IMG/VR virus record: IMGVR_UViG_3300042445_001170
Coordinates: 1 to 64,000 of that record
Reading direction: 5' to 3' (one strand)
DNA from: a virus
DNA: 64,000 nucleotides
Position 1 is the first letter of the stretch; every line of letters starts with the position of its first letter. A program made the position numbers and the translations under genes. Of the stretch, positions 7,579 to 30,497 are shown in pieces. The notes beneath the pieces were generated by a model, which saw nothing but the letters and a program-made list of their open reading frames with translations, made no database searches and was not told the origin of the DNA.

Positions 7579-7590
7579 TTTCTTTCTCCC

Positions 7591-8677: not shown

Positions 8678-8746
8678 TTTATTATCTCCTTGTGGGCAAT
8701 TTGCCCTTGGAATTTTCGGCTGTGGCCGAATACTATAATTCTACCA

Positions 8747-10681: not shown

Positions 10682-10877
10682 TTATTATACGACCTTTTCT
10701 CCGCCTTGCGGTGCTAATTTTGAATGAAGTCCTAGTGTATCAAACTTTTATTTAATGGTCTAGGGGTAAAAAATACTTTTATAAGTATCAGTATGTGAGA
10801 TATAGTTTCAGTTAACTAACTTGACAGTTACTTATATTCAATGCTATTCTTAGAGTTCGTTATCTCTATAGGAGGAA

Positions 10878-16921: not shown

Positions 16922-17214
16922 TTAGATCCCCCTATTAATAATTAATAATTAATTATATCACGAATAGATTCTGGTCGACTGCTATTTCAGATTTCATAAA
17001 ATGTTAATATATTTTTATTTTGTACGATACACACCTAAAAAGAAATCGGACATTTAGGATAGACCGCACATAATGAGCGTGTGCCTATGGGCAATGTGAT
17101 GCACTTCACAAAGTATTTTTTCAATTTGTCCCTAATGTCCGAATTTGGATTTGATAAATGTCAGACCCCCATGCTACGCTTATACTATAACAAACAAACG
17201 AAAGGAGTCAGACA

Positions 17215-17391
17215 ATGACTCAACTAAACGAAACACTATTCAGCACTATCGTGCATGACTTCCATAATGGCGGAGTCAAGTCCTCTTATGGACTATCTGC
17301 CTATGACCGCAAGGCTATGGTCAAGTACCTAATCTCTAGCCCTGCTTGCTACTGTATCGAGTGCGTGTGTGAGGTAACTCACACCGCATAA
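17215..17391 (+). CDS. Small hypothetical protein (58 aa)
   Basis: AACGAAAGGAG leader then ATG. Confidence 0.7.
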   Translation: MTQLNETLFSTIVHDFHNGGVKSSYGLSAYDRKAMVKYLISSPACYCIECVCEVTHTA

Positions 17392-17468
17392 GGTGCGTGT
17401 CGCCTTGATAATGTCAGACCTATACCCTATAATTCCATTATAACCAACTAACGAAAGAAGAACAGACA

Positions 17469-17621
17469 ATGACAATCACATACTCACTATGGGACGGCGC
17501 TCAACTACTAGGCGTGGACTTCACCGCTAATAGCGCAGACGAAATGAATAAGGCAGTAGCAGAACTACAAAAGGTTTCTAAGAATGTAGTAGCACACATG
17601 AGAAAGGTAACACAGAACTAA
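17469..17621 (+). CDS. Small hypothetical protein (50 aa)
   Basis: Follows promoter 17412 and the leader; TAATG coupling. Confidence 0.7.
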   Translation: MTITYSLWDGAQLLGVDFTANSADEMNKAVAELQKVSKNVVAHMRKVTQN

Positions 17622-17803
17622 TGTCATACGCATACTCATACCAAACTAATAGCGTGTCTAAGTGGGACACCATTCAGAGCGATGTCGCAGACGCATACGC
17701 CTACCTTGATGAAGAAGAAACAGAGCAACCCCCTGCTGATGATTTCGATGATGTAGACGATGAAGAATTAGCAAAAGTATTCGCACTAAGTTGGGATAAC
17801 TAA
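17621..17803 (+). CDS. Acidic hypothetical protein
   Basis: ORF track; coupled to the previous gene. Confidence 0.7.
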   Translation: MSYAYSYQTNSVSKWDTIQSDVADAYAYLDEEETEQPPADDFDDVDDEELAKVFALSWDN

Positions 17804-17805
17804 TA

Positions 17806-17943
17806 ATGGAACTACTACTAAATGACTACGGGCTAGAACTAGATACCTACATGGGCTCTCTATACCTACCTTGGCATACTATCGCTTTATCTACCGCCCT
17901 ACTAATCGCCTATAAGATTTATAAGAGAAAGAAGAGTAAGTAA
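17806..17943 (+). CDS. Small membrane protein (45 aa)
   Basis: MELLLNDY...; TM segment plus basic tail. Confidence 0.6.
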   Translation: MELLLNDYGLELDTYMGSLYLPWHTIALSTALLIAYKIYKRKKSK

Positions 17944-18053
17944 TGACTACTAATCGCATACTAACTACGCTAGTCCAACTAGGTATCGGTATCCCCGCCC
18001 TACTTATGCTCCGTCTAGTAATTCGTGATCTAATTCATAATAAATTAGACTAG
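17943..18053 (+). CDS. Small membrane peptide (36 aa)
   Basis: TAATG coupling; hydrophobic. Confidence 0.55.
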   Translation: MTTNRILTTLVQLGIGIPALLMLRLVIRDLIHNKLD

Positions 18054-18256
18054 CGCTACGGCGTGTCGGCTTGACAATGTCAAGCTGGCCCGCAAAGGCA
18101 CGGGGTCGGGCGTGTCGTTACGGATACGCTAAAAAACCCCTTGAATTTTGTGAGGTTTATCACAAAAAAGATTTATCAAAACACGGCGTGTCGTGTGGTA
18201 AATGTCAGTCCCCTCTGCTATAATTCCTACTATAACAACAACGAAAGGTCGTTAAA

Positions 18257-18385
18257 ATGACACTTGAAGAATACAAGGCGCACGTTGAGGCGCAACGCAA
18301 GGCAAGCCTTCTAAAGGCTATCGCAACAATGTCAGAGGCTAATGCTACAATGTCCTCTCTATTCAATACTAAGGAGGCTAACTAA
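18257..18385 (+). CDS. Small hypothetical protein (42 aa)
   Basis: AACGAAAGG leader; coupled. Confidence 0.65.
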   Translation: MTLEEYKAHVEAQRKASLLKAIATMSEANATMSSLFNTKEAN

Positions 18386-18507
18386 TGGGTTATGTAGAAA
18401 TCTTTCGCCTAGATGATGAGGGCGCTGGCTGGGTTGATTTATCAGAAGCAACACCAGATGAATTGTTTAACATTGAATTAGGATTACTAAATGAGGGGGC
18501 TCTCTAA
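18385..18507 (+). CDS. Small acidic protein (40 aa)
   Basis: AAGGAGG RBS; TAATG coupling. Confidence 0.65.
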   Translation: MGYVEIFRLDDEGAGWVDLSEATPDELFNIELGLLNEGAL

Positions 18508-18704
18508 TGGAGAAAACACAATTTGAAAAAGATTTAGAAATCAAGGAAAGTTTTATTGATTTACTTAATGACATTTATCCAGAGGTAAAAATTGGATACT
18601 CTACTTTTACACCCGCCGAAATTCTAGAGTGTTGCGACCCTGTTGCTTTTGCAATCGGATTAGTTGAGCACGAGGATTACCTAGCAGAAATGGAAAACGA
18701 ATAA
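18507..18704 (+). CDS. Hypothetical protein
   Basis: ORF track; coupled. Confidence 0.7.
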   Translation: MEKTQFEKDLEIKESFIDLLNDIYPEVKIGYSTFTPAEILECCDPVAFAIGLVEHEDYLAEMENE

Positions 18705-18805
18705 TGGATAAAGATATTTTTGGATTTGCCGAGGCAATTAGAATTGACGATCTTAGCGATGAAGATTTTAAAATTGTCGAATTAATTTTTAAAGATTTTA
18801 AGTAG
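18704..18805 (+). CDS. Small hypothetical protein (33 aa)
   Basis: TAATG coupling. Confidence 0.55.
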   Translation: MDKDIFGFAEAIRIDDLSDEDFKIVELIFKDFK

Positions 18806-19058
18806 CTAGCGGCGTGTCGACTTGACAAAGTTGATGCGCCCCCATAAGCACGGGGTCGGGCGTGTCGTTACGACATTGTTATAAAATCCCGTGAAATTTG
18901 CGGCGTGTCGATTTGACAGACAAATCGGACATTTCGATGTGATTAGTATCACACGGCTTGAGCGTCTCAGTATTTGGAATTACTGGCTAGTAATGTGAAA
19001 ATGTCAGTAGGCTCGTGTATAATTCCATACATAACAACAAACGAAAGAAGGTCTGCCA

Positions 19059-19265
19059 ATGGCTACCAAACTCTATACAATCGAAAGCCTACTTGTAGGA
19101 AAAAACTATCGCTCAAACTCTCGCCACTTTTCAGGCGAAATTGTTTCTGCTAAACCTCGTCCAGCAATTTGGTATGGCGATAAAACCGAAGCCTTTTTAA
19201 TTGAGGTTCGTACAGGCGGTCTGAGAAATAAATTCGCAACAATCGCAGTGAAGGTTGGTGAATAA
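19059..19265 (+). CDS. Hypothetical protein
   Basis: Promoter 19002 plus leader. Confidence 0.7.
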   Translation: MATKLYTIESLLVGKNYRSNSRHFSGEIVSAKPRPAIWYGDKTEAFLIEVRTGGLRNKFATIAVKVGE

Positions 19266-19442
19266 ATGAAAAGTTTTTCATCTGATGTAATTGACCATAA
19301 TGAATTTTATCTAATTCACGATTTATTATTTTTCTGTTGTGATGAGCAACAATTCCGCCACTCTTGTAAAGCACACGGCGAAATGATGGGTTGCTACTAT
19401 TGCGAATTTGATTACTCAAAAGATTGCGAGTGTGAGGAATAA
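19266..19442 (+). CDS. Small Cys-rich protein (58 aa)
   Basis: CC, CKAH, CYYC, CEC; abuts its neighbours. Confidence 0.6.
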   Translation: MKSFSSDVIDHNEFYLIHDLLFFCCDEQQFRHSCKAHGEMMGCYYCEFDYSKDCECEE

Positions 19443-19579
19443 TGATAAACTCAGTAATGCGTATAGATTGTTCAGAGTGTAATTCTACTGGACTAATCTT
19501 TTTTGGCGATAACAATAATTTTGATGTCGAAACTTGCGATTGCGATTTTGGCAAAGAGCAAGATTTATTTTTTAACTAA
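19442..19579 (+). CDS. Small Zn-binding protein (45 aa)
   Basis: CSECNSTG...CDC. Confidence 0.6.
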   Translation: MINSVMRIDCSECNSTGLIFFGDNNNFDVETCDCDFGKEQDLFFN

Positions 19580-19594
19580 CGAAAGGGAAAACCT

Positions 19595-19801
19595 ATGTAC
19601 CAAATAACTGTTGCCTACGATAGCAAGCCTATCCATTTCAACAAGAACTATACAGACGCTCTTGAAGCGTTTACCGCATTTCTTTCATTTACTGATTGGG
19701 GATTTGCTAACGAATACTCAACTGTAAATCTAATGACCCCAACTGGGAAAATGTATACTAAATTATTTTATCGTGAAGGTCGAAAGGTTGTAACAAAATG
19801 A
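19595..19801 (+). CDS. Hypothetical protein
   Basis: AACGAAAGGG leader. Confidence 0.7.
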   Translation: MYQITVAYDSKPIHFNKNYTDALEAFTAFLSFTDWGFANEYSTVNLMTPTGKMYTKLFYREGRKVVTK

Positions 19802-19989
19802 TGACTCGTAAAGACTATGTCGCAACGGCAGAAATTCTAAAGTATGCCAGCAACAAAACTCACCCCGCTGTATTTTCTAAAATTGTAAATGATTTTGCTG
19901 AAATGTTTGCGGTTGATAATCCGAGATTTGATGTAAAACGATTTCATGAGGCGAGTGGATACAATGTTCCTAACTTCAGTTCAAGATAA
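19798..19989 (+). CDS. Hypothetical protein (DNPRFD..RF motif)
   Basis: ORF track; coupled. Confidence 0.7.
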   Translation: MMTRKDYVATAEILKYASNKTHPAVFSKIVNDFAEMFAVDNPRFDVKRFHEASGYNVPNFSSR

Positions 19990-20095
19990 AGTAAAGCGAA
20001 TTCAGGAATTGCGTCGCAGTAATGCGGCGCAACCTGTTCGCAATAAGAAAAAATATAATCGCAAGATCAAACATAAGAATAAATATTCAGAGTAG
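19964..20095 (+). CDS. Small very basic protein (43 aa)
   Basis: ...LRRSNAAQPVRNKKKYNRKIKHK. Confidence 0.55.
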   Translation: MFLTSVQDKVKRIQELRRSNAAQPVRNKKKYNRKIKHKNKYSE

Positions 20096-20244
20096 CGCAT
20101 AACTATGCAGCTGCCCTCTCTTTTGTGGGGGGTCCAGTGTGAATTACGTCACATTTTAAAAATACCCTGAAAATTCGGCGTGTCGATTTTGATCTGTCAG
20201 TCCATTCTGCTATACTTGCCACTTAACCAACGAAAGGCTAACTA

Positions 20245-20454
20245 ATGGATAATTTTACTGTTGCTTGCTTGAACTATGAAATTTGTGGCGCTCAAGAAAC
20301 TTTTGATAACGATGCAGAATATGAAATTTATGGCGATGACTATATTTGTGCTGAATGCTATGCATCTGAGGAAATGGAATTCTTTGAAACTATAGGCTGG
20401 TCTGATAGCGATGCTCTTGCTTCCGCTGGCCACGGTATGGATGAGGATTACTAA
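20245..20454 (+). CDS. Acidic Cys-containing hypothetical protein
   Basis: Promoter 20195 plus leader. Confidence 0.7.
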   Translation: MDNFTVACLNYEICGAQETFDNDAEYEIYGDDYICAECYASEEMEFFETIGWSDSDALASAGHGMDEDY

Positions 20455-20485
20455 GATGTCAGTGGTCCCCGTTATAATTACCCCT

Positions 20486-21205
20486 ATGAAACTGAAACGT
20501 TCTAATGATAGAAAGGTGGCCAACCTTGTCACAAAAAATGGAAAGCAAGCCGCAATTGCCAATACTTTCGGATTACCTGCTGGAAAAGCTTACTCGTGCC
20601 CTGGTGCCACTAGTATTTGTGAAAGCGTTTGCTATGCAGGAAAACTCGAAAAGTTATTCCCTGGAGTAAAAACTAATCTGCTTCATAACTGGGCCCTGCT
20701 TAAAGACGCCGATAGCGAAACTATGGTCTCTCTTCTAAATGAAATGATTGTAGAATTCAAGGCAGATTGTGTTAAGAAAGACGCTCCTCAATTATTCCGT
20801 ATCCACTGGGACGGGGATTTCTTTAGCGATACTTATGCATATGCCTGGAAGACTGTTATCAACACACACGCTGATATTCAATTTTGGGTCTACACACGTG
20901 TAAAGTCTGCAGCGCTTATTCTTAAGGATATATCTAATCTGTCACTGTATTATTCTACGGATGATGATAATAAAGATATTGCTCATGATTTAAAACTAAC
21001 TAATGGCATTCGTCTTGCCTACCTAGGTAAAACATTTGCTGCAACCGAAGACACAATGAAGGAGTTAACTGGCAAGCCTGGTGCTAAGTGTCCTGAGAAT
21101 AATAAAAGCATTCCTCTTATCTCTAGCAATGGGTCCGCCTGCGTATCGTGTGGATTGTGCGTATACGGTAAAGCGGATATTAGATTTTCTGCGAGTAAAA
21201 AATAA
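20486..21205 (+). CDS. Gp88-like Fe-S/radical-SAM-like phage protein
   Basis: CPGATSICESVCYA, FRIHWDGDF, FWVYTR; leaderless ATG 7 nt after the -10 at 20473. Confidence 0.7.
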   Translation: MKLKRSNDRKVANLVTKNGKQAAIANTFGLPAGKAYSCPGATSICESVCYAGKLEKLFPGVKTNLLHNWALLKDADSETMVSLLNEMIVEFKADCVKKDAPQLFRIHWDGDFFSDTYAYAWKTVINTHADIQFWVYTRVKSAALILKDISNLSLYYSTDDDNKDIAHDLKLTNGIRLAYLGKTFAATEDTMKELTGKPGAKCPENNKSIPLISSNGSACVSCGLCVYGKADIRFSASKK

Positions 21206-21354
21206 TGATAGACATTCTCGGATCCTTGATCGGAATCATATTAATTTGTTTTTTGTGCTCACCAATTGTGTTGGCCGTGTACATGTGGAATGGGGCCAAG
21301 ATAGATAGCGATGGTGACGGGAAAGAAGATTTGCCTAATCGTTGGGATAGGTAA
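21205..21354 (+). CDS. Small membrane protein (49 aa)
   Basis: TAATG coupling; TM segment then DSDGDGKED. Confidence 0.5.
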   Translation: MIDILGSLIGIILICFLCSPIVLAVYMWNGAKIDSDGDGKEDLPNRWDR

Positions 21355-21404
21355 CGGCGTGTCGAGTTGACAATTGTCAGCTCGGCCCCCAATATTGTGG
21401 GGGT

Positions 21405-21434
21405 TTTTCCACAGGCTTACGAGAGTTATCCACA
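21405..21434 (+). promoter_or_regulatory. DnaA-box pair
   Basis: TTTTCCACA at 21405, TTATCCACA at 21426. Confidence 0.6.
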
Positions 21435-21547
21435 GACCCTGAAAATTTGTGATTAATCTCACAAAAGCTGCGACACGCCGAGAATGGATTAGGTAATGTC
21501 AGTGGCCTATGCTAAAATACTCTTATACCAACAACGAAAGGTAAGTT

Positions 21548-21772
21548 ATGTCTAATCTAATGAAAGTTCCACACACAGTTGAGTTCGAGGCAGTTATTGA
21601 CTTGGATAAAATTCCTTCACACTTGCTTCCTGCGCTAGTTTCTATGGATGCTGATTCTATTGAAAAAATGTGCAAAGGCGCAACACTACACGCACTTGGA
21701 ATGTCAAATGTAATTCCACTTGCTAATGAAAATAACACTTGGGCTGAAGTAACAATTAAGGGGAATAACTAA
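21548..21772 (+). CDS. Hypothetical protein
   Basis: Promoter 21497 plus leader. Confidence 0.7.
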   Translation: MSNLMKVPHTVEFEAVIDLDKIPSHLLPALVSMDADSIEKMCKGATLHALGMSNVIPLANENNTWAEVTIKGNN

Positions 21773-22038
21773 TGGGATACACAACAGCAGTAAGTCTATC
21801 TGAAGAATTAGATTTAGAAGTAGCACTAGGCTATCACTTACAAGGCAATCATTACCCGCCCGTTCCCCTCTCAATGGTCGAGCCTTGCATCGAGGCTATT
21901 GACGCTTATTGGGAAGAAGATTTTGATCGAGCAATCGAAATGCCTGAAGGCGTATCTTATAAAGGTCAAACTCACGCACCTGCTTGGGCTATTGTCGAGC
22001 AGCACCACTTGGACGCTTGGCTACCTGAAAGTGACTAA
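21772..22038 (+). CDS. Hypothetical protein
   Basis: ORF track; coupled. Confidence 0.7.
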   Translation: MGYTTAVSLSEELDLEVALGYHLQGNHYPPVPLSMVEPCIEAIDAYWEEDFDRAIEMPEGVSYKGQTHAPAWAIVEQHHLDAWLPESD

Positions 22039-22134
22039 GGTCACACAATAACTTTCTCAAATACTGAGATAGGGCTAGACTAATGTCAGACCCCAATGCT
22101 ATACTACCAACCTAACAAAGAAAAGAGGCAATAA

Positions 22135-22317
22135 ATGACAATAGATAATCAACTCTATCAGGTCGGAGATTTATTCACCACCCTGAAGTCAAAGAAAACT
22201 GGTGTGATTAAGGAAATCCACCCACAGGCATCTGGCTCGGTGCGTGTGCTACTAGAAATGCCAACGAAGGAAACTCGTTGGACTTCGGTATCCGCTAAGA
22301 CACTACTAGGCGCATAA
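22135..22317 (+). CDS. Small SH3/KOW-like hypothetical protein
   Basis: YQVGDL...GVIKEI beta pattern; promoter 22084. Confidence 0.65.
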   Translation: MTIDNQLYQVGDLFTTLKSKKTGVIKEIHPQASGSVRVLLEMPTKETRWTSVSAKTLLGA

Positions 22318-22452
22318 CCTAAATCGAAACAGGGACAGTTTAGGAAAGTATCTAGTCCAATGTCGTAAGTAAGAACTTTCCTCCCTTCGGGGAAATGTCA
22401 GACCCCCCTGCTATACTATCCATAACAACAACCAACCAACGAAAGGCACACA

Positions 22453-22869
22453 ATGTCAAGAGCAATCACAGTAAAGGTGGCAACACCAAAGGTAATTAAG
22501 GCACTAGAAACTCGTCTAGCAACACTAGAAAAAGACTATGCTTCACAAGAAGCAAACGAAGCAAAGTTCCAAAAGAAGCACGAAGCGTGGAAAAAGGAAA
22601 TTGGTAAGTGGGCTATCGCTAACTTCTCAAAGTCCGAGAACCTTCGCACAAACTATCGTTCTTGGAACAAAACGCTAAATGTTGATTTTGACATCATTGT
22701 AAGTGAGAAGGAGTTTCCGCTAGAGCCTGAGAAGGACTACGAAACAATCCATCAGCACACTTATCGTGAGATGAAAGAGGACATCACAAATGCCCTAACA
22801 ATTCTCAAGATGACAGATGAGGAAACAGTAAATGCTTCTACAATGAAGCAGATTGCTAAGTATCTCTAA
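22453..22869 (+). CDS. Coiled-coil hypothetical protein
   Basis: Promoter 22396 plus leader. Confidence 0.75.
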   Translation: MSRAITVKVATPKVIKALETRLATLEKDYASQEANEAKFQKKHEAWKKEIGKWAIANFSKSENLRTNYRSWNKTLNVDFDIIVSEKEFPLEPEKDYETIHQHTYREMKEDITNALTILKMTDEETVNASTMKQIAKYL

Positions 22870-22933
22870 ATAATTTGGGGGGCAGAACTAAAGTCCTGAA
22901 CCCAATCGTTCTCGCATAACGCTAAATTGCGAA

Positions 22934-22960
22934 CGACCTGAGTAAGTCGCCAAACTGCTC
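22934..22960 (+). ncRNA. Small H-type pseudoknot element, copy 1
   Basis: CGAC-CTGAGTAA-GTCG-CCAAAC-TGCTC. Confidence 0.55.
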
Positions 22961-22992
22961 TCCTTCGGGAAACTACTAACAAAGGTAATACA

Positions 22993-23253
22993 ATGGCAAA
23001 TCGTTTCAGAGTAGAAATCTACGATGCAAACAAACTTAATGACATCACGATTTATTCGGATCAAGGTGTTGATAAAGAATACTTAACTGAATTAGTATTC
23101 AGCAACATCAGAAACTTTAGCGGAAAAATTAACGCTTATGTTTTTGATAACGTGAAGAAAAAGAAAACAACTGCAATGTTTCTTGATGAGAGCACAGTTG
23201 AATTTAATAAGAACTTAATTAAAAATGCGACAAAGGTAGAGGTGGGGATTTAA
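22993..23253 (+). CDS. Hypothetical protein
   Basis: ORF track; AAAGG RBS. Confidence 0.7.
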   Translation: MANRFRVEIYDANKLNDITIYSDQGVDKEYLTELVFSNIRNFSGKINAYVFDNVKKKKTTAMFLDESTVEFNKNLIKNATKVEVGI

Positions 23254-23282
23254 TCCCCAGCTCGGCCCCCGCTTTTGAGGGG

Positions 23283-23314
23283 TTATCCACAGCGTTACGA
23301 CAACCTGTGGAAAA
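23283..23314. promoter_or_regulatory. Inverted DnaA-box pair
   Basis: TTATCCACA at 23283, TGTGGAAAA at 23306. Confidence 0.6.
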
Positions 23315-23431
23315 CCCTGAAAATTTGTGAGAATGATCACACCGCACAATTCGGACAAATGACTATCTAATCTAGACAATGTCAGTGCCACCTGTTATAC
23401 TTACAACTAATCAAACGAAAGGTAAAAAATA

Positions 23432-24436
23432 ATGGCTCATAATCTAGAAATGGAAAACGGCGAAGTTGCTTTCGCTCTCCGTGGCGCACCTGCTTGGCAC
23501 AATCTAGCAAATCGCATCTTCACACAAGATGAAGAAGTAACTACACAATCTATGCTTGAAGAAGCAAAGTTGGCTAATTGGAATGTTCGTCTATCTCCAA
23601 TAACTGAGCACATTCCAGAATCTTGGAATGATGTTTCTACTGCATCTCTTGTCATTCGTGATAACCCATTCAATGGCGGAACTGATGTTCTTGCAACTGT
23701 CGGTAAGCGTTACAAGCCTGTGCAGAATGAAGAACTATTTGCATTCGCTGATGCAATTCACGATGCCAATGCTGATTGCCGTTGGGAATCTGCTGGCTCA
23801 CTCAAAAAGGGCAAAGTTGTTTTCGGTACTGTGGACATTCCTCGCACAATGGTGCTTGACCCACAAGGCGCTAACGATGAAACTAAACTCTATCTAATTG
23901 TTTGGACATCTCATGACGGGTCTGTTGCCGTTCAGGCAGCCGTTACACCTGTTCGTGTTGTTTGCCAAAACACACTTAACCTTGCAATGAAGAATGCTAA
24001 GCAATCTTTCAAGATTCGCCATACGCAATCTGTTGAAGGTCGCATTCAGGTTGCTCGTGAAACTCTTGGGCTTGCTCTTGGTTATTTCGATGAGTTTGAA
24101 GTTGAAGCAAAGGCGCTTTACTCTCAGGCAATTACTGATGCTGAATTCTCTAAGTTGATTCAGACAATTTATCCTAAGCCTGAAAAAGATGCTAAGGGTG
24201 CAATCAAGAAGTGGGAAAACAAAGTTGTCCTGCTTGACGATTTGTATCACAACTCACCAACTAATGCTAACATCAAGGGAACAAAGTGGGGCGCATTCAA
24301 TGCACTTACTGAGCGCCTTGATTACTATCGTTCAGGTCGTGGCAATGGTGAAACTCTTATGGCGGGTGCATCAGGATTTGACCCTGTTCTAACTGCTGAG
24401 AAAAACAAAATCAAGAAATTGGTTTCTGCTTTCTAA
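23432..24436 (+). CDS. DUF932 family (phage/plasmid TIGR03299-like) protein
   Basis: MAHNL...AWH, YKPVQN, SHDGS...TPVRVVCQNTL, IRHT, GTKWGAFNALTE. Confidence 0.88.
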   Translation: MAHNLEMENGEVAFALRGAPAWHNLANRIFTQDEEVTTQSMLEEAKLANWNVRLSPITEHIPESWNDVSTASLVIRDNPFNGGTDVLATVGKRYKPVQNEELFAFADAIHDANADCRWESAGSLKKGKVVFGTVDIPRTMVLDPQGANDETKLYLIVWTSHDGSVAVQAAVTPVRVVCQNTLNLAMKNAKQSFKIRHTQSVEGRIQVARETLGLALGYFDEFEVEAKALYSQAITDAEFSKLIQTIYPKPEKDAKGAIKKWENKVVLLDDLYHNSPTNANIKGTKWGAFNALTERLDYYRSGRGNGETLMAGASGFDPVLTAEKNKIKKLVSAF

Positions 24437-24442
24437 TTAAAA

Positions 24443-24470
24443 AAATCCTGAGCATGATTTAAAACTGCTC
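24443..24470 (+). ncRNA. Small H-type pseudoknot element, copy 2
   Basis: AAATC-CTGAGCAT-GATTT-AAAAC-TGCTC. Confidence 0.55.
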
Positions 24471-24482
24471 ACATTTTTTATT

Positions 24483-24556
24483 GGTCTGTTAGCTCAGTTG
24501 GTTAGAGCGCTACCCTGTCACGGTAGAGGTCGACGGTTCAAGTCCGTTACAGATCG
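24483..24556 (+). tRNA. tRNA-Asp(GUC)
   Basis: Cloverleaf; anticodon arm CTACC-CTGTCAC-GGTAG. Confidence 0.95.
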
Positions 24557-24681
24557 CAAAATGCCCCCAATAGTAAGGGAGCAAAAAGTGTGTTACGAGT
24601 CACAAAACAATTCCCTGGAATCTATTGTATATGTCAGTGGGTTCGTGTACAATACTCCTATAACCTAACGAAAGAGGTAAA

Positions 24682-25110
24682 ATGTCACGAGAACGCAGAA
24701 CGGGATACACAGGCAATGTATTAGATGGCGAGAAGCTTGCCAAAATTGCTAATGACATCTACAACATTCAGTATACTGGTGGTGCAAGTAATTGCACGGT
24801 AGACAACCTATTACTAATTGAACTAGAAGAAAAAAATGTATTTGGGGATCCAAAGTATGCAGTAATATGCTCAGAAGGTGTTGGCTGGGAACAAGATGAA
24901 TATGGTTGCCTAGAAATACCTACAAACATTGGCGCTATGGGTCTATGGAATGGAAGAGTCTTTATCTCAGTAGAGACTGTTAAGTCTTGTCAGACTATAT
25001 TTACCAAGGAAGTATCAGAATACATTAGAACCTTTGGGTCCCGCCTGGATTCAAATTGCTCCCTATGGCAGTCCAAAATGTCAGTGGCACCTGCTACAAT
25101 ACTCGCATGA
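24682..25110 (+). CDS. Hypothetical protein
   Basis: Promoter 24632 plus leader. Confidence 0.7.
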   Translation: MSRERRTGYTGNVLDGEKLAKIANDIYNIQYTGGASNCTVDNLLLIELEEKNVFGDPKYAVICSEGVGWEQDEYGCLEIPTNIGAMGLWNGRVFISVETVKSCQTIFTKEVSEYIRTFGSRLDSNCSLWQSKMSVAPATILA

Positions 25111-25763
25111 CCAACGAACTAGTATCAAGTAAATATACATTTGTCTGCGACCCAGATGAATGTGATTGTCTAATTGAATTAACATCATCTGACGGGTTTG
25201 GATTCCCATCAGGTGTGACAGAACTCACATGTCCATGTGGCCGTAAGACTACCTTATTGTCAGTGGAGCATGCTACAATTGCACCAACAACAACGAAAGA
25301 GGAACAAATGGAAACAACAACACCTGCAGTAACCGTCCCTGATACATACAACTCAAATTTATTGGTTACCTATAAAGTAATCCGTGGCTATTCAGATGCA
25401 GAATATGCAACTGATAAGGTTGCATCTATTGAGTGGGACTTACATAATGGACGTCAATCACAAAAGCGTGTAACCACTCTCCTATCTCAAATTGATGCCG
25501 TCAAAGATATCATTACTGAATCATATGCTGATTCAAGCGACCAAGAAACACTTCAAGCAATTGCTGAAGCGCTAGACATTTCTCTAACACGAGAAGTTGA
25601 GTGGTCTGCAACAATTGAAGTTAGCGGAACATTAACAATTGATTTACTTGAAAGCACAGTTGATGATGTCGAACAAGAAATCTACGACAATCTTTATGTT
25701 GACTCACAAAACGGTCAGATTGAAATCGTTGACACTGAAGTTACGAATGTGCGTGAAAACTAA
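25107..25763 (+). CDS. Hypothetical protein: Zn-ribbon N-terminus, internal second start at 25308
   Basis: Leaderless ATG after the -10 at 25095; internal promoter 25258 plus leader give an in-frame ATG at 25308. Confidence 0.7.
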   Translation: MTNELVSSKYTFVCDPDECDCLIELTSSDGFGFPSGVTELTCPCGRKTTLLSVEHATIAPTTTKEEQMETTTPAVTVPDTYNSNLLVTYKVIRGYSDAEYATDKVASIEWDLHNGRQSQKRVTTLLSQIDAVKDIITESYADSSDQETLQAIAEALDISLTREVEWSATIEVSGTLTIDLLESTVDDVEQEIYDNLYVDSQNGQIEIVDTEVTNVREN

Positions 25764-25975
25764 TGTACTTTGAACTTACCGCTCCCGATAGGTTGTCCAT
25801 GGAGATGGCCTATTGGGATGCACAAATCACAGGGCTTGACCCTGAAGCAATGTCACCGTTGACTTTCAACATCGGAACTGGTAGTATTGAGAAAGTAAGT
25901 CGTATTCGTGATAAGTATAACTTGACAGAGTCCTACTGGTCAGATAAAGAAGCGACAGGATACAAGGAGAGATAA
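25763..25975 (+). CDS. Hypothetical protein
   Basis: Coupled ORF. Confidence 0.7.
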   Translation: MYFELTAPDRLSMEMAYWDAQITGLDPEAMSPLTFNIGTGSIEKVSRIRDKYNLTESYWSDKEATGYKER

Positions 25976-26121
25976 TGTCAGATTATAAAGATGGTTTTAC
26001 AGACGGGTATAAGTTTGCTCGTGAAGAACTAATGGAAAAGTTAGCAGAGATTGATATTGCTGACATTGACTCTTGGATTCTTGACCGTCTTTCAGAGATG
26101 ATTGAAGGTAATCAACTGTGA
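25975..26121 (+). CDS. Small acidic protein (48 aa)
   Basis: AGGAG RBS; MSDYKDGF... Confidence 0.6.
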   Translation: MSDYKDGFTDGYKFAREELMEKLAEIDIADIDSWILDRLSEMIEGNQL

Positions 26122-26309
26122 TGGCTGAGTGGCTTAAGTGTGATCAATGTGCAGCACAAGCTATGTGGGAAGCAAAGAAAGACGCTATGTCTCTTTATTT
26201 CTGCGGACATCATAAGAATGCACAGGGCGAGTCTCTTGTGGACTGGGCCCATGAAATGGTACAATTACTCAACTACGAAAAAGAACACCAACTAGAAACG
26301 GCGGAATAA
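26118..26309 (+). CDS. Small Zn-binding protein (CDQC...FCGHH)
   Basis: Motif pattern seen in small actinobacterial and actinophage proteins. Confidence 0.7.
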   Translation: MMAEWLKCDQCAAQAMWEAKKDAMSLYFCGHHKNAQGESLVDWAHEMVQLLNYEKEHQLETAE

Positions 26310-26310
26310 A

Positions 26311-26679
26311 ATGGGCGACAGAGCAAACTTTGGATTTAAAGATTCCAAGGACAATATTGTATTTCTATATGGACACTGGGCGGGGCACCGAATGCTAGAG
26401 AACCTAGCGGATGCTGTAGGCGCTGCAGAGCCACGTTGGCAGGACGAATCATATGCAACACGTATTGCTATCTCACAATTAATTAAAGACGAATGGGCTA
26501 GCGAAACAGGGTGGGGCATTACAGTAAATGAATTAGCAGACAATGAGCACAAGGTCCCTATTATCGATTGGAAGAACCAAACGTTTACATTAATGGAAGA
26601 GGACCTGAAGACGGTTGTATTTAGTACAACACTGGATGCATTTGTAACTAAGTATTCCAGTCAACCAAGTATGGTATAA
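26311..26679 (+). CDS. Hypothetical protein (MGDRAN...LYGHWAG family)
   Basis: ORF track. Confidence 0.75.
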   Translation: MGDRANFGFKDSKDNIVFLYGHWAGHRMLENLADAVGAAEPRWQDESYATRIAISQLIKDEWASETGWGITVNELADNEHKVPIIDWKNQTFTLMEEDLKTVVFSTTLDAFVTKYSSQPSMV

Positions 26680-26684
26680 TTAAT

Positions 26685-26836
26685 CCAGGACCTATGGTCT
26701 TGGTTTTAATACAGAAATGAAATGGTGCGTCTAACTAGTCTACGGGCCAGGCGCTAAGTAAAGCGGTTTATTTCTTTCGTTGGAAATCTAGCAGCCATAT
26801 TCATAACCCCCCAGCTAATCCTGGGGGGTATTCTTT
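26685..26836 (+). ncRNA. Candidate sRNA with loop complementary to the island mRNA leaders
   Basis: TGGTATAAT at 26672-26680, 5' hairpin, long closing stem, loop TTTCGTTG, terminator. Confidence 0.65.
26806..26836 (+). terminator. Intrinsic terminator
   Basis: ACCCCCCAG-CTAATC-CTGGGGGGT followed by ATTCTTT. Confidence 0.8.
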
Positions 26837-26917
26837 TGCCCACAAAAGATATGAGGGTATCAGATCTCTTTTAAGAAGTCAATATAAAATACCCTGAAAA
26901 TTTGTGATCTTGACCAC

Positions 26918-26970
26918 AAACCTAACAATAGATTAATTAAACCTAACAAGCTTTCGATCAAACCTAACAA
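26918..26970 (+). repeat. AAACCTAACAA x3 with a 21-bp period
   Basis: Copies at 26918, 26939, 26960. Confidence 0.9.
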
Positions 26971-27053
26971 TGTGGTCCAATTCACACAGCATATGTATTC
27001 CATTTGTCAGTGGTCTAGTCTATAATTAGAACATATCAACGAAAGGATATAAA

Positions 27054-27797
27054 ATGCCAAACTGGGTATTCAACGGATTAACTATTGAGGGTAATCCTGA
27101 GCAAGTTAAGTCTTTAATTACACAGATGAATAAGCCATTTATTTATTCAATTACTCCTGTTGGAGATTTAGCATATGATGTCAAGCAGACTAAGTATGTT
27201 AATCCTATCTTTGCTTTTCATAATATCTATTCATATAGAGATGCTGGTATTACTGATGAACAGTATCATTCTCAACCGCCCCATAATCCTGATACAACAA
27301 TGAAGGATTGGTTTAAGTTTGAGACCAATGATTGGTACAACTTCAATGTCCGTGAGTGGGGCACTAAATGGGATGTAGCCGTATCTGAGGATGATAAGTA
27401 TCCTGATACTACTATTGAGGAAGCCGAAAATGGCGAGAACTATGTAGTCCACTATAACTTTAATACTGCTTGGTCTCGTCCAATGAATGCTTTAATTAAA
27501 CTATCATCTCAATACCCAACATTACTATTTACTTTATCATATGAGGAAGAAACAGGTTGGGGTGGGGAATGTGAGTTCCTTCGTGGAGAAGTTATCTCAG
27601 AATCAGAATATGACAACATGTGCCGTGATTGTGATGCAACAGACCAAATGGAATACTGCGAAAATGACTGTGGTGAAATCTGTGGCAACTGCAACTGGCT
27701 TGGTGAGGCTGACCTAGAGGCTGTAGCAAAATGTCAGACCCATGCTATATACTTGGAAACTAAAGTACCCGAATATCGAAAGGCGGAGGTAAAATGA
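27054..27797 (+). CDS. DUF1281/YubB ferredoxin-like family protein
   Basis: MPNWVFN, DWYNFNVREWGTKWD, FNTAWS motifs; Cys-rich tail. Confidence 0.75.
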   Translation: MPNWVFNGLTIEGNPEQVKSLITQMNKPFIYSITPVGDLAYDVKQTKYVNPIFAFHNIYSYRDAGITDEQYHSQPPHNPDTTMKDWFKFETNDWYNFNVREWGTKWDVAVSEDDKYPDTTIEEAENGENYVVHYNFNTAWSRPMNALIKLSSQYPTLLFTLSYEEETGWGGECEFLRGEVISESEYDNMCRDCDATDQMEYCENDCGEICGNCNWLGEADLEAVAKCQTHAIYLETKVPEYRKAEVK

Positions 27798-28024
27798 GTT
27801 TTCTAGAGAACGAAAACCAAATGGTAATAGATGCAACATATTCAGAGATTGGCGAAATGCTAGTTGAAGATTGGGTTAATTCTAATTTAGATGAAGGTCA
27901 GATGTATGCAGATTTTAGATTTGCAGAAATGTCAGATAGCAATTATCTAAAGGGCAGATTTAATCAGTTCTATGATTTAAATGAAGGCGACCAGTATTAC
28001 CTAGAATGGAATGAGGAACTATGA
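27794..28024 (+). CDS. Acidic hypothetical protein
   Basis: GGAGG RBS; ATGA overlap. Confidence 0.7.
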   Translation: MSFLENENQMVIDATYSEIGEMLVEDWVNSNLDEGQMYADFRFAEMSDSNYLKGRFNQFYDLNEGDQYYLEWNEEL

Positions 28025-28200
28025 TGTTAGGTTATTCTAAAACAGATCTAGATGAAATGATTAACTCGGTCCATGATGCTAAATTGTTTTACATTAGAAA
28101 TTCAGATGTTGAGCAAGTTGACCAAGACCCTTTAGTTGAAGGCTTATTAAAAACAAATGACTTTCTTCAAGGTCTATGGGCAGAAGGGTATTTTGACTAA
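28021..28200 (+). CDS. Hypothetical protein (59 aa)
   Basis: MMLGYS...LQGLWAEGYFD; coupled. Confidence 0.65.
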   Translation: MMLGYSKTDLDEMINSVHDAKLFYIRNSDVEQVDQDPLVEGLLKTNDFLQGLWAEGYFD

Positions 28201-28310
28201 TGCATAAACATCATTGGGAATGTGATGATGTACCAGGATACTTTTATTGTGCCTGCGGAGTAATGGCTATTCATAATAGAGAAACGGGAGAGAAGGATAT
28301 TCATGACTAA
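28200..28310 (+). CDS. Small His/Cys peptide (36 aa)
   Basis: MHKHHWEC...CACG; coupled. Confidence 0.5.
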   Translation: MHKHHWECDDVPGYFYCACGVMAIHNRETGEKDIHD

Positions 28311-28512
28311 ATCATCAGTGTTCCTAGAATACATGAAACTTCATTTGATCAGTCTTAACCAGGATTGGGAAGATGCTAAAAATGGAGCACCTTTGAAGGA
28401 TGATGAATATGACCCTTCAGATGATTACTTTGAAGGAGCAATTGCAGCAACAGAACATTTATTGTCAGTGGCAACTGATATAATGAACTCTACTAACGAA
28501 AGGTATGAATAA
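28303..28512 (+). CDS. Hypothetical protein
   Basis: ORF track. Confidence 0.7.
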   Translation: MTKSSVFLEYMKLHLISLNQDWEDAKNGAPLKDDEYDPSDDYFEGAIAATEHLLSVATDIMNSTNERYE

Positions 28513-28790
28513 TGGATATGACTATGGAAGACATTGGGCTCCCGCCCCATTTGCAACGTATGGTTAATGCTGGAGTATCAGGTCTTGATATCATGCATGG
28601 AGAACTAAAGAATCTAATGCTTATGGCTGAGCAAGAACTAGCAAGCGCTTTAGAACAAGAAGAAATATCAGAAGAGGCAATGGACTCTATGGTCCGCACC
28701 GAATGTGAAGGTCGACTAGACGCCTTGGTAGAACTTTACCAATTAACTTATCAATTATCATTTGCGATTGGAGCACGGGATGAAGCCTGA
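28512..28790 (+). CDS. Hypothetical protein
   Basis: Promoter 28463 plus leader. Confidence 0.7.
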   Translation: MDMTMEDIGLPPHLQRMVNAGVSGLDIMHGELKNLMLMAEQELASALEQEEISEEAMDSMVRTECEGRLDALVELYQLTYQLSFAIGARDEA

Positions 28791-29100
28791 AGATAAAGAC
28801 AAACTAAATGAATGCTTAAAGATTCTTGACACTACTGACCTTGGTCTCTCCATGGTATGGCTGTGGACGTGGTCGACTATTAATAACATCCTAGACGATG
28901 AAACGTACAAGGCCAAGGTGACACAGGACCAGATGTGGGACAACCTCTGTGAGGCTGTAGAGGCAGGCCACGGGTTCTCTCTGGAGTACGGGGCGGAACA
29001 ACATCAGGACGATGTACTTGAATGGATGACTAATCGTGACTACATTGTGGACACAATGTGGGAGGAAGAAGAGGATGAAGACGAAGATGAAGATGAGTGA
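28780..29100 (+). CDS. Acidic hypothetical protein
   Basis: Start moved to MKPEDK after GGAG. Confidence 0.7.
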   Translation: MKPEDKDKLNECLKILDTTDLGLSMVWLWTWSTINNILDDETYKAKVTQDQMWDNLCEAVEAGHGFSLEYGAEQHQDDVLEWMTNRDYIVDTMWEEEEDEDEDEDE

Positions 29101-29233
29101 CGCATACCTGAATGATCAATTAAATACAGCACAAAAGCTTTTGTGGGGCGGGTCCGAAACAGAAAACATTGAAGCCCATAACATCATTGCTAAATTAATT
29201 AAAGATCGTATTGAACAAGCGGATCTTTTGTAA
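29093..29233 (+). CDS. Small hypothetical protein
   Basis: Start moved to MSDAY. Confidence 0.6.
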   Translation: MSDAYLNDQLNTAQKLLWGGSETENIEAHNIIAKLIKDRIEQADLL

Positions 29234-29341
29234 GGGCCAAATTCGGCGGTTACGACACAATTTAATAAACTCCTGAAACTATTTACAAAATTGGAAATAG
29301 TTGATATACTGAATAAAACATCTCTTGAAAGGGGATTCAAA

Positions 29342-29491
29342 ATGGCAACAAAGCGTGAATATCTAAAGTCACAGGGCATCACAGTCGGCGTACGTGGTCG
29401 CTTCTCAGGCGCAGCAAAGGTAGCTCTAGCGGAGGCGGTAGCCAAGGGCGTTACATTTACTGCAGAAACTCCAGCCAACAAGGCTAAGTAG
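29342..29491 (+). CDS. Lsr2-like DNA-binding domain-only protein
   Basis: REYLKSQGITVGVRGRFS resembles Lsr2 REWA..G..V..RGRI; AAAGGGG RBS. Confidence 0.65.
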   Translation: MATKREYLKSQGITVGVRGRFSGAAKVALAEAVAKGVTFTAETPANKAK

Positions 29492-29500
29492 TCCAGGGTG

Positions 29501-29530
29501 GAGGTCAGGGCTTCGTTCGTCCTTGACCTC
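29501..29530 (+). terminator. Hairpin terminator
   Basis: GAGGTCAGGG...CCTTGACCTC followed by a T-rich tail. Confidence 0.65.
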
Positions 29531-29573
29531 CTCTCTTATTTTTGGTACAATTAACAGTTAGGCGGAGGCGGAT

Positions 29574-29948
29574 ATGAAAACACAAGAAACAAAAGTAGCA
29601 GAATCATTAGTTAATCTAATGGATGACCATTGGTTTAATCCAACAATATTTGGTCGATACTTGGCGGAACAGCCATTATATACAATTGACCGAATTATGG
29701 AAATGGTCGTATCAGTTATATCAGAACAAGCAAAGATATATGATGTACAGTTAAATAGAGGTACATCTACTGAAGGTCTAATGTTAGCCAATGAACTGAA
29801 TGAATGTATCAAGGCATATCAGCAAGATAACAACTTAGTTAATCTTAAGTTGCCGTCCCGTTCTTACAAAGTAAAACGGGAGGAACCAGCAGAAAGAACA
29901 TATCAATTTGGATGGCGGGAAGAGAAAGATCCATTCAGTCAACCATAA
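29574..29948 (+). CDS. Hypothetical protein
   Basis: GGAGG RBS; TGGTACAAT upstream. Confidence 0.7.
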   Translation: MKTQETKVAESLVNLMDDHWFNPTIFGRYLAEQPLYTIDRIMEMVVSVISEQAKIYDVQLNRGTSTEGLMLANELNECIKAYQQDNNLVNLKLPSRSYKVKREEPAERTYQFGWREEKDPFSQP

Positions 29949-30007
29949 GGCATATACCAATGAATAGATGAATGCCTGGTTAGATAGATAAACATATCTA
30001 GCCCAAA

Positions 30008-30040
30008 TTATCCACAGGGTTATCCACATCCTGTGGATTT
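30008..30040. promoter_or_regulatory. DnaA-box cluster
   Basis: TTATCCACA at 30008 and 30020; inverted degenerate TGTGGATTT at 30032. Confidence 0.65.
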
Positions 30041-30407
30041 TTTGTATGCTGTGGGCATGAGGGCAAAATTTTCTATTTACGACAGAGGATCCAAATCCCT
30101 GAAATTTCTAGCTCATGGGCCAAATTTTCTATTTACGAAGCCTTGACAAAAATCCCTGAAAATGCTACACAATAATGTCTAAATGATTTATTATACATAT
30201 TAAATGTCGACAAATGTGTAGAGAATATGGCAGAATATGGGAAAATTCCTCATGAAATCTATTGACAAATATGGATCAATATGCTGCTATATGTGTCCGA
30301 ATTGTCCTATTGACATTACGTTAAGTATATGGGAGGATGTTCCATTAGACATATATGTTTAGATAGATATAACTATAGTATATGACATGCTATCTATAGT
30401 ATAAATT

Positions 30408-30434
30408 CTCCACTATGCTCCACTTTACTCCACT
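30408..30434 (+). repeat. CTCCACT x3 with a 10-bp period
   Basis: Copies at 30408, 30418, 30428. Confidence 0.8.
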
Positions 30435-30497
30435 ATATAAGCCTCTAGGAGGCTATTAGAGGCTGGAGAAATGGGAGGGGGATATAGGAGTTAGGAT

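Follow-up and report, generated by a model that had tools for sequence, protein, structure and literature searches.

Why would a phage set apart about 13 kb for a block of tiny genes whose promoters resemble host regulatory sites, and what would read them? We address this question for an uncultured lake phage of actinobacteria (IMG/VR record IMGVR_UViG_3300042445_001170; 112,167 bp), of which positions 1 to 64,000 constitute the window analysed here. A sequence-only reading of this window had described an island of about 45 tiny genes, opposite in strand to its flanks, whose units start with subsets of one ordered module. It had proposed that host-takeover genes are gated by cAMP, DNA-damage and cell-cycle signals and then silenced by an sRNA, that the modules may allow cassette shuffling, and that the island may be a terminal repeat or first-injected region.

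The island (17040..30165, plus strand) contains about 40 small ORFs (median about 60 aa), a tRNA-Asp(GTC) gene (24483..24557, plus strand) and one candidate sRNA in at least 17 promoter-led units, and lies between minus-strand genes ending at 16921 and starting at 30498. The earlier gene count is close. Nearly all island proteins are orphans with no family. Those with a domain or family likeness, all on the plus strand, include a GP88-family protein (PF17338; 20411..21205), a DUF932 protein (PF06067; 23432..24436), a protein with a DUF1281_C (Api92-like) domain (27054..27797), and a 49-aa protein with a weak Lsr2 DNA-binding-domain likeness (RGR motif; 29342..29491), which has its own canonical promoter, TTTACA-17-TATACT, at 29282-29310.

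Enrichment of the motifs over the rest of the genome had been named beforehand as a criterion, and was examined by counting over both strands of the 112,167 bp and by Markov shuffles of the island. Of the TGTCAG-N10-TAnnnT elements, 17 of 19 plus-strand copies are in the island and 1 copy is on the minus strand (shuffles give 0.10). For TGTGA-N6-TCACA, 8 of 8 perfect copies and 12 of 12 with at most 1 mismatch are in the island (shuffles give 0.02). The leader AACGAAAG has 13 of 13 plus-strand copies in the island, each 5-11 nt before a start codon (shuffles give 0.37), and the corresponding values are 9 of 9 for GCGTGTCG and 6 of 6 for TTACG-N16/17-CCTGAA. Within each unit the elements run in the order terminator-like GC hairpin, GGCGTGTCG, TTACG..CCTGAA, CRP box, GGCGTGTCG or CGGACA, TGTCAG-N10-TAnnnT, AACGAAAG and ATG, as had been described. 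The observation is thereby confirmed, whereas the interpretation built on it is supported only in part.

A PafBC-type promoter element (TGTCAG-N10-TAnnnT) lies at 17159..17180 (plus strand), and the same 22-nt element also starts at 17412, 18203, 18330, 19002, 20195, 20457, 21497, 22084, 22396, 23380, 24632, 25079, 25258, 27005, 27732 and 28463. Its consensus is aaTGTCAGtgg/accc..TGcTAtAAT, with a TGn extended -10 in 11 of 17 copies and no conserved -35. The published consensus of promoters dependent on the DNA-damage activator PafBC (RecA-NDp) is tGTCgg(N10)tA(N3)T, with the element at -23 to -28 and no -35 (PMC8635444), and the island core matches it in sequence and spacing. Of 30 sampled actinobacterial recA loci, 25 carry exactly one TGTCRG-N10-TAnnnT about 100 nt upstream of recA (23 of 28 without two unpublished genomes, G030 and G043), and they show the same two downstream flavours, tggc and accc, as the phage. 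The two promoter classes exclude each other: the island has 17 PafBC-type and none of the canonical TTGACA-N16-18-TAnnnT promoters, of which 13 lie outside, and a sigma-70 consensus scan found no enrichment in the island. No WYL domain, PafB or PafC homolog (phmmer best E 1.4), HTH_Crp_2, sigma70_r2 or tyrosine integrase was recognised in the phage, and a host factor is therefore the simplest reader. PafBC and CRP are, however, assumed for the true host; a lake Aquiluna MAG has adjacent pafB and pafC, but its CRP-type hit was below threshold.

About 95 related lake-phage contigs keep the arrays. In 80 related IMG/VR loci, the promoter motif occurs 1162 times on the gene strand and 6 times on the other strand, and more divergent lake-phage clades carry 5-16 copies each. 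The 170-bp regulatory region before the DUF932 gene is at least 90% conserved, while the neighbouring small ORF is 20-70% conserved.

The palindromes are CRP/GlxR-type sites, with perfect copies at 17095..17110 and starting at 17368, 18149, 18938, 20138, 21448, 23326 and 25214, and one-mismatch copies starting at 22030, 24589, 26903 and 26971. Their offsets to TGTCAG follow steps of about 10 bp, with peaks at -34, -44, -54, -64, -75 and -86 in relatives, and a Rayleigh test gave p of about 0.006 in the window. One conserved class of CRP box sits out of phase, at -49, and some divergent clades have the promoters without CRP boxes. The bipartite, strand-specific element TTACG-N16/17-CCTGAA(AA) lies at 21417..21443 (plus strand), with other copies starting at 20144, 23295, 29250, 30077 and 30133 and variants near 18118 and 18868; relatives carry 269 copies on the gene strand and 0 on the other. 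The GGCGTGTCG element lies at 18060..18068 (plus strand), with other copies starting at 18109, 18185, 18811, 18859, 18902, 20177 and 21356; GCGTGTCG starts at 17395, and an inverted copy lies at 21471-21479. In three promoters it sits 2 nt upstream of a -35-like hexamer, and elsewhere it forms arrays after the preceding gene's stop.

Two of the proposed regulator matches fared less well. The match to WhiA is not supported, because it consists only of the 5-mer GACAC inside GCGTGTCG, and GACAC is not enriched. The match to DnaA is weak: the boxes are four perfect, conserved 9-mers, two of which form part of a terminator hairpin. At 30008..30038 (plus strand), two direct TTATCCACA boxes plus one inverted copy together form the terminator hairpin at the island's end, and other TTATCCACA copies start at 21426 and 23283.

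The shared leader and ribosome-binding element AACGAAAG(G) lies at 17197..17204 (plus strand), with other copies starting at 17450, 18240, 19040, 19578, 20229, 21533, 22438, 23414, 24667, 25292, 27038 and 28495, and is absent from 129 non-island ORF starts, as is ACGAAAG. The candidate sRNA (26686..26840, plus strand; about 155 nt) is preceded by an extended -10 promoter, TGGTATAAT (26672..26680, plus strand), which is conserved in relatives and has no TGTCAG element. It is predicted to form a 5' hairpin, a closing stem, two inner arms and an intrinsic terminator (stem 26806-26829), and matches no Rfam family. In the alignment, 96.8% of cells are paired against 30-45% for slid controls, and 7 pairs show compensatory changes, so that a real structured RNA is supported. 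Its loop CTTTCGTTGG (26774..26783, plus strand) is the reverse complement of the leader CCAACGAAAG, and all 13 leaders match the loop over 8-10 nt. The loop is invariant in the close clade, and the core CTTTCGTT is also kept in divergent clades. However, the flanks of the seed do not co-vary with the leader flanks, the seed overlaps the Shine-Dalgarno sequence, which is constrained anyway, and RNAalifold pairs three loop bases.

Modules are conserved while the genes between them vary. Similarity breakpoints are twice as frequent in modules as expected (p = 1e-10 on clustered breakpoints), and one cassette consisting of a promoter plus a 142-aa ORF (24632..25110, plus strand) is present in 16 and absent from 52 related loci. 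This mosaicism fits cassette exchange like that of the PeSL (promoter-early stem-loop) cassettes of T4-like phages (PMC2839356, PMC4122927), in which composite terminator-promoter repeats likewise lie between small variable genes and indels and replacements between close relatives have their junctions at the repeats; the promoter type and phage lineage differ, and recombination at the modules is here inferred from the pattern.

The island is also syntenic with the 10.8-kb terminal repeat of Streptomyces phage Paradiddles (1-10777 = 122710-133486; Stanwilliamsviridae), which supports a terminal-repeat origin. The GP88-like and DUF932 genes are homologs of Paradiddles gp8 and gp3 and lie inside that repeat in the same order, with a gp23-like gene and RNR on one side and thioredoxin on the other. 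At the right edge of the island, two tandem 56-bp units (30077..30165, plus strand) each contain TTACG-N16/17-CCTGAA, and contig ends of relatives cluster just beyond, at 30174-30593. As in the repeats of Paradiddles and relatives and in the SPO1 host-takeover module (PMC10531801), a block of about 10-13 kb holds many small orphan genes, each unit with its own promoter, and two to three genes are homologous. Paradiddles, however, uses ordinary TTGnnn/TAGACT promoters with CGGACA boxes in its repeat and has no PafBC or CRP motifs, so the present design is lineage-specific.

The closest known promoters are the PafBC-dependent (recA P1-type) promoters of Mycobacterium and other Actinobacteria, which are read by 'sigma adaptation' (PMC8635444, PMC11804915) and share TGTCRG with an invariant GTC exactly 10 nt before TAnnnT. 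The phage sites differ in forming an array of 17 upstream of orphan rather than repair genes, and in their combination with a near-consensus, often extended -10 and with CRP boxes. At T4 middle promoters, a MotA box at -30 likewise replaces the -35 and defines a separate temporal class in a lytic phage, but T4 encodes its own activator and co-activator (MotA/AsiA, acting by sigma appropriation), whereas this phage has no recognisable one and appears to use a host protein. Class I CRP/GlxR-activated promoters also carry TGTGA-N6-TCACA upstream of the core in steps of about 10 bp (in the island, centres fall at about -54.5, -64.5, -74.5 and -84.5 if the -10 box spans -12 to -7), although with a -35/-10 core rather than a PafBC-type core. 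The candidate sRNA resembles base-pairing RNAs that occlude ribosome-binding sites, such as prophage DicF and IS10 RNA-OUT/RNA-IN, in having its own promoter and terminator and a conserved exposed sequence complementary to the ribosome-binding region of its putative targets, but would face 13 or more paralogous leaders of a whole phage gene block.

Other readings were weighed against host PafBC control of an early region. The strongest alternative, possible although unlikely, is that the island is a middle or damage-triggered class: PafBC needs ssDNA to join the polymerase complex (PMC8635444, PMC11804915), and the 13 canonical promoters outside, near tRNA and replication-type genes, would fire before ssDNA from phage replication or host DNA breakdown turned the island on. 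Against this, the homologous region in relatives is the terminal repeat with ordinary strong promoters, the equivalent terminal-redundancy genes of SPO1 are the host-takeover set (PMC10531801), and the extended -10 may allow immediate basal firing. It is less likely that a phage-encoded factor, either an orphan or a virion protein, reads the -26 element and/or the palindromes, as at T4 middle promoters, whose architecture of a box near -26/-30 plus a -10 is the same (PMC8635444). An unrecognised DNA-binding protein cannot be excluded among so many orphans, but the likeness to the host motif covers nine letters, the exact spacing and both flavours seen at recA, eight palindromes match the CRP consensus at 10 of 10 positions, and convergence on two host sites at once is unlikely.

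Two further readings appear improbable. The arrays might act mainly as decoys, with tens of high-affinity sites per genome, multiplied by replication, titrating PafBC and CRP and blunting the host DNA-damage or defence response, while control of phage genes would be secondary. The sites are indeed unusually perfect (8 of 12 palindromes match fully), and 17 PafBC-type sites compare with 9 motif matches in the whole 1.9-Mb Aquiluna MAG. A pure sponge would, however, need neither the fixed distance of every PafBC-type element from a -10 box and a leader with a start codon, on the gene strand only, nor phased CRP boxes; titration remains compatible with the main explanation as an added effect. Alternatively, these might be constitutive extended -10 promoters, with TGTCAG and the other boxes inherited as passengers of a duplicated module and kept by recombination between copies rather than by function. 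A near-consensus extended -10 can work without a -35 and could make the promoters PafBC-independent, and the modules are clearly paralogous and recombining, but the element is kept at 90% or more across 60 distinct orthologous sequences while neighbouring coding DNA drifts, it is also kept in clades whose surrounding sequence no longer aligns, and spacer sequences between the elements differ among copies.

The explanation that we consider somewhat more likely than not is that the island is the small-gene region that forms the long terminal repeat in cultured Stanwilliamsviridae, here in an apparently lytic freshwater phage. The motifs, their exclusivity and conservation, the RNA structure, the mosaicism and the synteny were established by the analysis, whereas the proteins that bind, host-takeover function, early timing, gating by cAMP, DNA damage or the cell cycle, transcription of the sRNA, the sign of regulation including silencing, and physical repetition at the genome ends or first injection are inferred. 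In this view, the 17 or more units would be read by host RNA polymerase with the housekeeping sigma factor, and host PafBC, once activated by single-stranded DNA, would most likely bridge sigma region 4 and the '-26 element' and switch on or boost the whole island, with the extended -10 probably giving a basal level without PafBC. The twelve palindromes, on one helix face 34-64 bp upstream of the element, would probably add class-I-like activation by the host cAMP receptor protein. The first gene of most units would be translated from the shared leader, and the island-encoded sRNA, from its own PafBC-independent promoter, would show the complement of that leader and probably tune or shut down translation of the set. 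The repeated terminator-promoter modules would also serve as homology for gain, loss and exchange of gene cassettes.

The DNA examined is the first 64 kb of a virus record of 112,167 bp in IMG/VR, which is classed as linear and as 100% complete by CheckV. It has a G + C content of about 39%, carries 13 tRNA genes and encodes a WhiB-like protein. The closest cultured relatives by protein are Streptomyces phages of the family Stanwilliamsviridae, such as Paradiddles (131-135 kb), with 65% identity in the ribonucleotide reductase (RNR) and 51% in the DUF932 protein of the island, whereas a megablast search of the island against GenBank phages yielded no match at the nucleotide level. IMG/VR contained 308 related stretches, of which the best 80 share 92-100% identity in the DUF932 protein. 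The phage therefore belongs to an abundant, uncultured clade of metagenomic phages of Actinobacteria, and the records of mis-binned relatives point to lake water. A search for the host via the phage RNR among genome contigs returned only phage contigs mis-binned into metagenome-assembled genomes (MAGs) of many phyla, which says nothing about the host. These contigs, whose RNR is 78-95% identical, are binned into MAGs labelled Bacteroidia, Saccharibacteria, Brevundimonas and cyanobacterium, which likely reflects mis-binning of phage DNA in public MAGs.

About 40 plus-strand ORFs, a tRNA-Asp gene and one small RNA are located between minus-strand genes that end at 16921 and start at 30498. The tRNA-Asp gene (24483-24557) sits directly after the DUF932 gene and before an optional cassette. 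Counted over the whole genome, the motifs are confined to the gene strand of the island, which comprises 17 of 19 plus-strand copies of TGTCAG-N10-TAnnnT, 8 of 8 perfect copies of TGTGA-N6-TCACA (12 of 12 with at most one mismatch), 13 of 13 copies of AACGAAAG, 9 of 9 copies of GCGTGTCG and 6 of 6 copies of TTACG-N16/17-CCTGAA. Markov shuffles of the island gave 0.10, 0.02, 0.37, 0.01 and 0.01 copies, respectively. The order of the elements within the units was the one described in the sequence-only reading, whose observation is thus confirmed.

Alignment of the 17 promoter sites yielded aaTGTCAGtgg (or accc), followed by TGcTAtAAT, with an information content near zero upstream of about -30. 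Eleven of the sites have a proper TGn extended -10 box, and a minority carry a -35-like TTGATA or TAGACA. The published PafBC (RecA-NDp) consensus is tGTCgg(N10)tA(N3)T, with the upstream part located at -23 to -28 (the '-26 element'), no -35 box, and a GTC triplet that is read by PafB (PMC8635444). The phage motif matches this consensus in letters and spacing. Among 30 recA loci drawn evenly from 81 genomes of the class, 25 carry exactly one TGTCRG-N10-TAnnnT about 100 nt before recA (23 of 28 if the two loci from the unpublished genomes G030 and G043 are left out), with the same two downstream flavours, tggc and accc, as in the phage. The 13 canonical TTGACA-N16-18-TAnnnT promoters of the phage all lie outside the island, and a scan with the sigma-70 consensus showed no excess inside it (46 sites against 40 +/- 6 in shuffles). 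The phage therefore has two mutually exclusive promoter classes.

Searches of the phage revealed no WYL domain, no HTH_Crp_2 and no sigma-2 domain, and also no homolog of PafB or PafC from a freshwater lake Aquiluna MAG (phmmer --max, best E 1.4). The same MAG carries adjacent pafB and pafC genes, encoding two WYL proteins of 318 aa each, but a search for the promoter motif found only 9 scattered matches and no array, and a search for the CRP-type HTH gave only a hit below threshold. A host factor is the simplest reader of the promoters, although the presence of PafBC and of a cAMP-binding CRP-family protein in the true host is assumed.

The CRP/GlxR-type palindromes (8 perfect and 4 with one mismatch) start 34, 43/44, 54 or 64 nt before TGTCAG, with exceptions at 49, 57 and 102 nt (Rayleigh test for a 10-bp period, p of about 0.006). 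In 302 distinct contexts from relatives, the offsets peak at -34, -44, -54, -64, -75 and -86, with an additional conserved class at -49 that is out of phase. This pattern fits a protein that must face the polymerase, as in class I CRP activation. Some divergent clades retain the promoters but lack the boxes, so this input is optional. Three direct copies of AAACCTAACAA, spaced exactly 21 nt apart (26918, 26939, 26960), lie in an iteron-like arrangement between two one-mismatch boxes (26903, 26971), upstream of the promoter at 27005 and just after the terminator of the small RNA, and have no known reader.

The 80 relatives carry 1162 copies of the promoter motif on the gene strand and 6 on the other strand. 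Before the DUF932 gene, the entire regulatory stretch of 170 bp (terminator, TTATCCACA, TTACG..CCCTGAAAA, CRP box, CGGACA, AATGTCAGTG, -10 box and leader) is at least 90% conserved over 60 distinct orthologous sequences, whereas the small ORF immediately upstream is only 20-70% conserved. A pattern scan of IMG/VR for the G variant of the element (TGTCGG), which is used by divergent clades, identified further clades with 5-16 such promoters per locus, some of which were only 67-74% identical in the DUF932 gene and some not alignable at all.

Between 26679 and 27054 lies a unit with an extended -10 box (TGGTATAAT, 26672-26680), no TGTCAG element, a strong intrinsic terminator (26806-26839) and no ORF of 30 aa or more on that strand. 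The RNA matches no Rfam family, folds better than shuffled sequences (z = -2.65) and is present in 52 relatives. The consensus structure has 20 pairs, with 96.8% of the cells paired (30-45% when the partners are slid), seven pairs with changes on both sides, and a covariation score of 0.232 (at most 0.063 for the slid controls). The hairpin at 26765-26788 displays CTTTCGTTGG, which is invariant in the close clade, and the core CTTTCGTT, followed by AGCAGCC, persists in divergent clades whose other parts differ.

All 13 leaders match this sequence over 8-10 contiguous bases, whereas only 8 of 129 other translation starts reach 8 bases anywhere in the hairpin. Both ACGAAAG and even GAAAGG are absent from these 129 starts; the leader is therefore an island-specific signal and not the general ribosome-binding site of the phage. 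However, the seed overlaps a Shine-Dalgarno sequence, three bases of the loop are paired in the consensus fold, and the flanks of the seed do not co-vary with those of the leaders. Duplex energies (RNAduplex) separate the island leaders from controls only weakly (-19.1 against -14.7 +/- 3.0 kcal/mol), and we relied on the contiguous seed instead. As a conserved structure inferred from sequence, the RNA is real, but its action on the leaders is a good hypothesis to which we give slightly less than even odds, and an 'off-switch', as proposed in the sequence-only reading, is only one possible sign of regulation.

Along the island, the fraction of relatives that align drops to 20-50% over many ORFs but rises to 80-100% over the modules at 18.8-19.05, 21.4 and 27.0 kb and over a conserved core at 21.8-24.5 kb. 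Distinct similarity breakpoints fall into modules twice as often as expected (97 of 234 clusters against 23% expected; p = 1e-10), although short cross-matches between paralogous modules inflate the breakpoint count somewhat. The unit consisting of promoter 24632 and ORF 24682-25110 is present in 16 loci and cleanly absent from 52. Repeated terminator-promoter units with indel or replacement junctions at the repeats are the pattern described for the PeSL cassettes of T4-like phages (PMC2839356, PMC4122927). The genes that directly flank the island (16500-16900 and 30500-30800) align in only 0-3% of the relatives that span them, although the edges of the island are conserved; the junctions are hypervariable.

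Paradiddles has a direct terminal repeat of 10,777 bp (1-10777 = 122710-133486) that is filled with small genes, each behind its own promoter. The GP88-like and DUF932 genes of the island are homologs of gp8 and gp3 in that repeat and occur in the same order; a gp23-like gene and RNR lie on the promoter-proximal side, and thioredoxin lies on the converging side. A 49-aa ORF with an RGR motif (29282-29491, including its promoter) is weakly similar to the Lsr2 DNA-binding domain (Pfam E 0.045) and to the Lsr2-like gp7 in the Paradiddles repeat (pairwise E 2e-4), and is preceded by a canonical promoter (TTTACA-17-TATACT) rather than one of the PafBC type. The record thus looks like the Paradiddles map with its two repeats merged, which is what assemblers do to long terminal repeats. 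In the Paradiddles repeat, a unit consisting of a GC hairpin, a CCGGACA box, TTGnnn, TGTAGACT and a leader with a GGGGG..CCCCC hairpin precedes nearly every small gene. CGGACA also occurs in the modules of the lake phage (17047, 18926, 23352), but Paradiddles uses ordinary TTGnnn/TGTAGACT promoters and has no PafBC or CRP motifs. The PafBC-type design is therefore an innovation of the lake clade.

When the contig ends of 80 relatives were mapped, 9 of 50 right ends fell within 30174-30593, a mild clustering that is suggestive only. The AT-rich non-coding stretch after the island (30165-30500), where these ends cluster, contains three CTCCACT repeats near 30408-30445 and short palindromes and could hold a packaging or terminus site. 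A distant relative of 124,540 bp (G082, IMGVR_UViG_3300043438_002264), which IMG/VR classes as having direct terminal repeats, has ends of 8,517 bp (1-8517 and 116024-124540) that are 100% identical and overlap its PafBC-type promoter array. Since both boundaries fall inside ORFs and five promoters lie upstream of the repeat, we interpret this as an assembly overlap and not as physical ends.

The interpretation offered in the sequence-only reading is supported only in part. The proposed match to WhiA sites is not supported, because it rests solely on the 5-mer GACAC inside GCGTGTCG, and GACAC is not enriched (129 copies in the genome, only 22 of them in the island); only the longer GGCGTGTCG is island-specific. 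GGCGTGTCG is a real, conserved and strand-biased element without a known reader. At 18060-18200, 18811-18911 and 21356-21400, it is followed after 2 nt by TTGACA, partly as palindromes (CTTGACAATGTCAAG, TGACAATTGTCA) and with no usable -10 box downstream, forming arrays of a site for an unknown protein. The proposed DnaA sites are possible but unproven: four of the six genomic copies of TTATCCACA-type 9-mers lie in the island, all four perfect, of which the copy at 23283 is conserved in relatives and the pair at 30008 and 30020 belongs to the terminator hairpin at its end. The proposed host-takeover function remains an inference, since the island proteins are orphans apart from GP88, DUF932, DUF1281_C, DUF7455 and the Lsr2-like peptide.

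Other readings of the island were also considered. A canonical sigma-70 reading of the units was rejected on the basis of the consensus scan. A temperate lifestyle or prophage induction is unlikely because the cultured relatives are lytic-type and no integrase of the tyrosine type, the only type searched for, was found. The possibility that TTACG-N16/17-CCTGAA is the promoter of a phage sigma factor found no support in the search for sigma-2 domains, which leaves this element unexplained. The inferred early timing is also not the only option: if PafBC must first be activated by single-stranded DNA (ssDNA), the island could be a delayed class rather than the earliest one.

What the analysis establishes is the confinement of the motifs to the island and their conservation, the agreement of the promoters with the PafBC consensus, the phasing of most CRP-type palindromes, the conserved structure of the RNA, the mosaicism, and the synteny with the terminal repeat of a cultured phage. 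The dependence of transcription on PafBC and ssDNA, the binding of a host CRP, early expression and host shut-off, transcription of the small RNA and its effect on its targets, and the presence of the island at both physical ends of the phage DNA are inferred. Host-activator-dependent phage promoters and long-terminal-repeat early regions are both known kinds, of which the island is a variation; it comes with a testable, previously undescribed small RNA. A more far-reaching reading, which is not excluded but which we consider unlikely, is that a lytic phage has wired a whole regulon of about 40 genes to two host sensors at once, PafBC for ssDNA and CRP for cAMP, without encoding any transcription factor of its own, and then closes that regulon after transcription with one small RNA that pairs with the shared ribosome-binding leader. 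This would be a complete on/off circuit made only of DNA sites and one RNA, and the same modules would double as recombination joints for swapping takeover genes.

The 'sigma adaptation' by PafBC is known only as a host DNA-damage response, and a phage that builds a whole gene block on this promoter type would be the first viral user that we could find in the limited literature searched, in which no paper described phage promoters of this type. It would show that a host activator can do for an actinophage what the phage-coded MotA/AsiA pair does for T4, and infection would be tied to the ssDNA alarm of the host and, through CRP, to its nutritional state. The small RNA adds a candidate for regulon-wide translational control in a lytic phage. 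Because the phage clade is abundant in lake metagenomes, the design may also matter for the ecology of freshwater actinobacteria.
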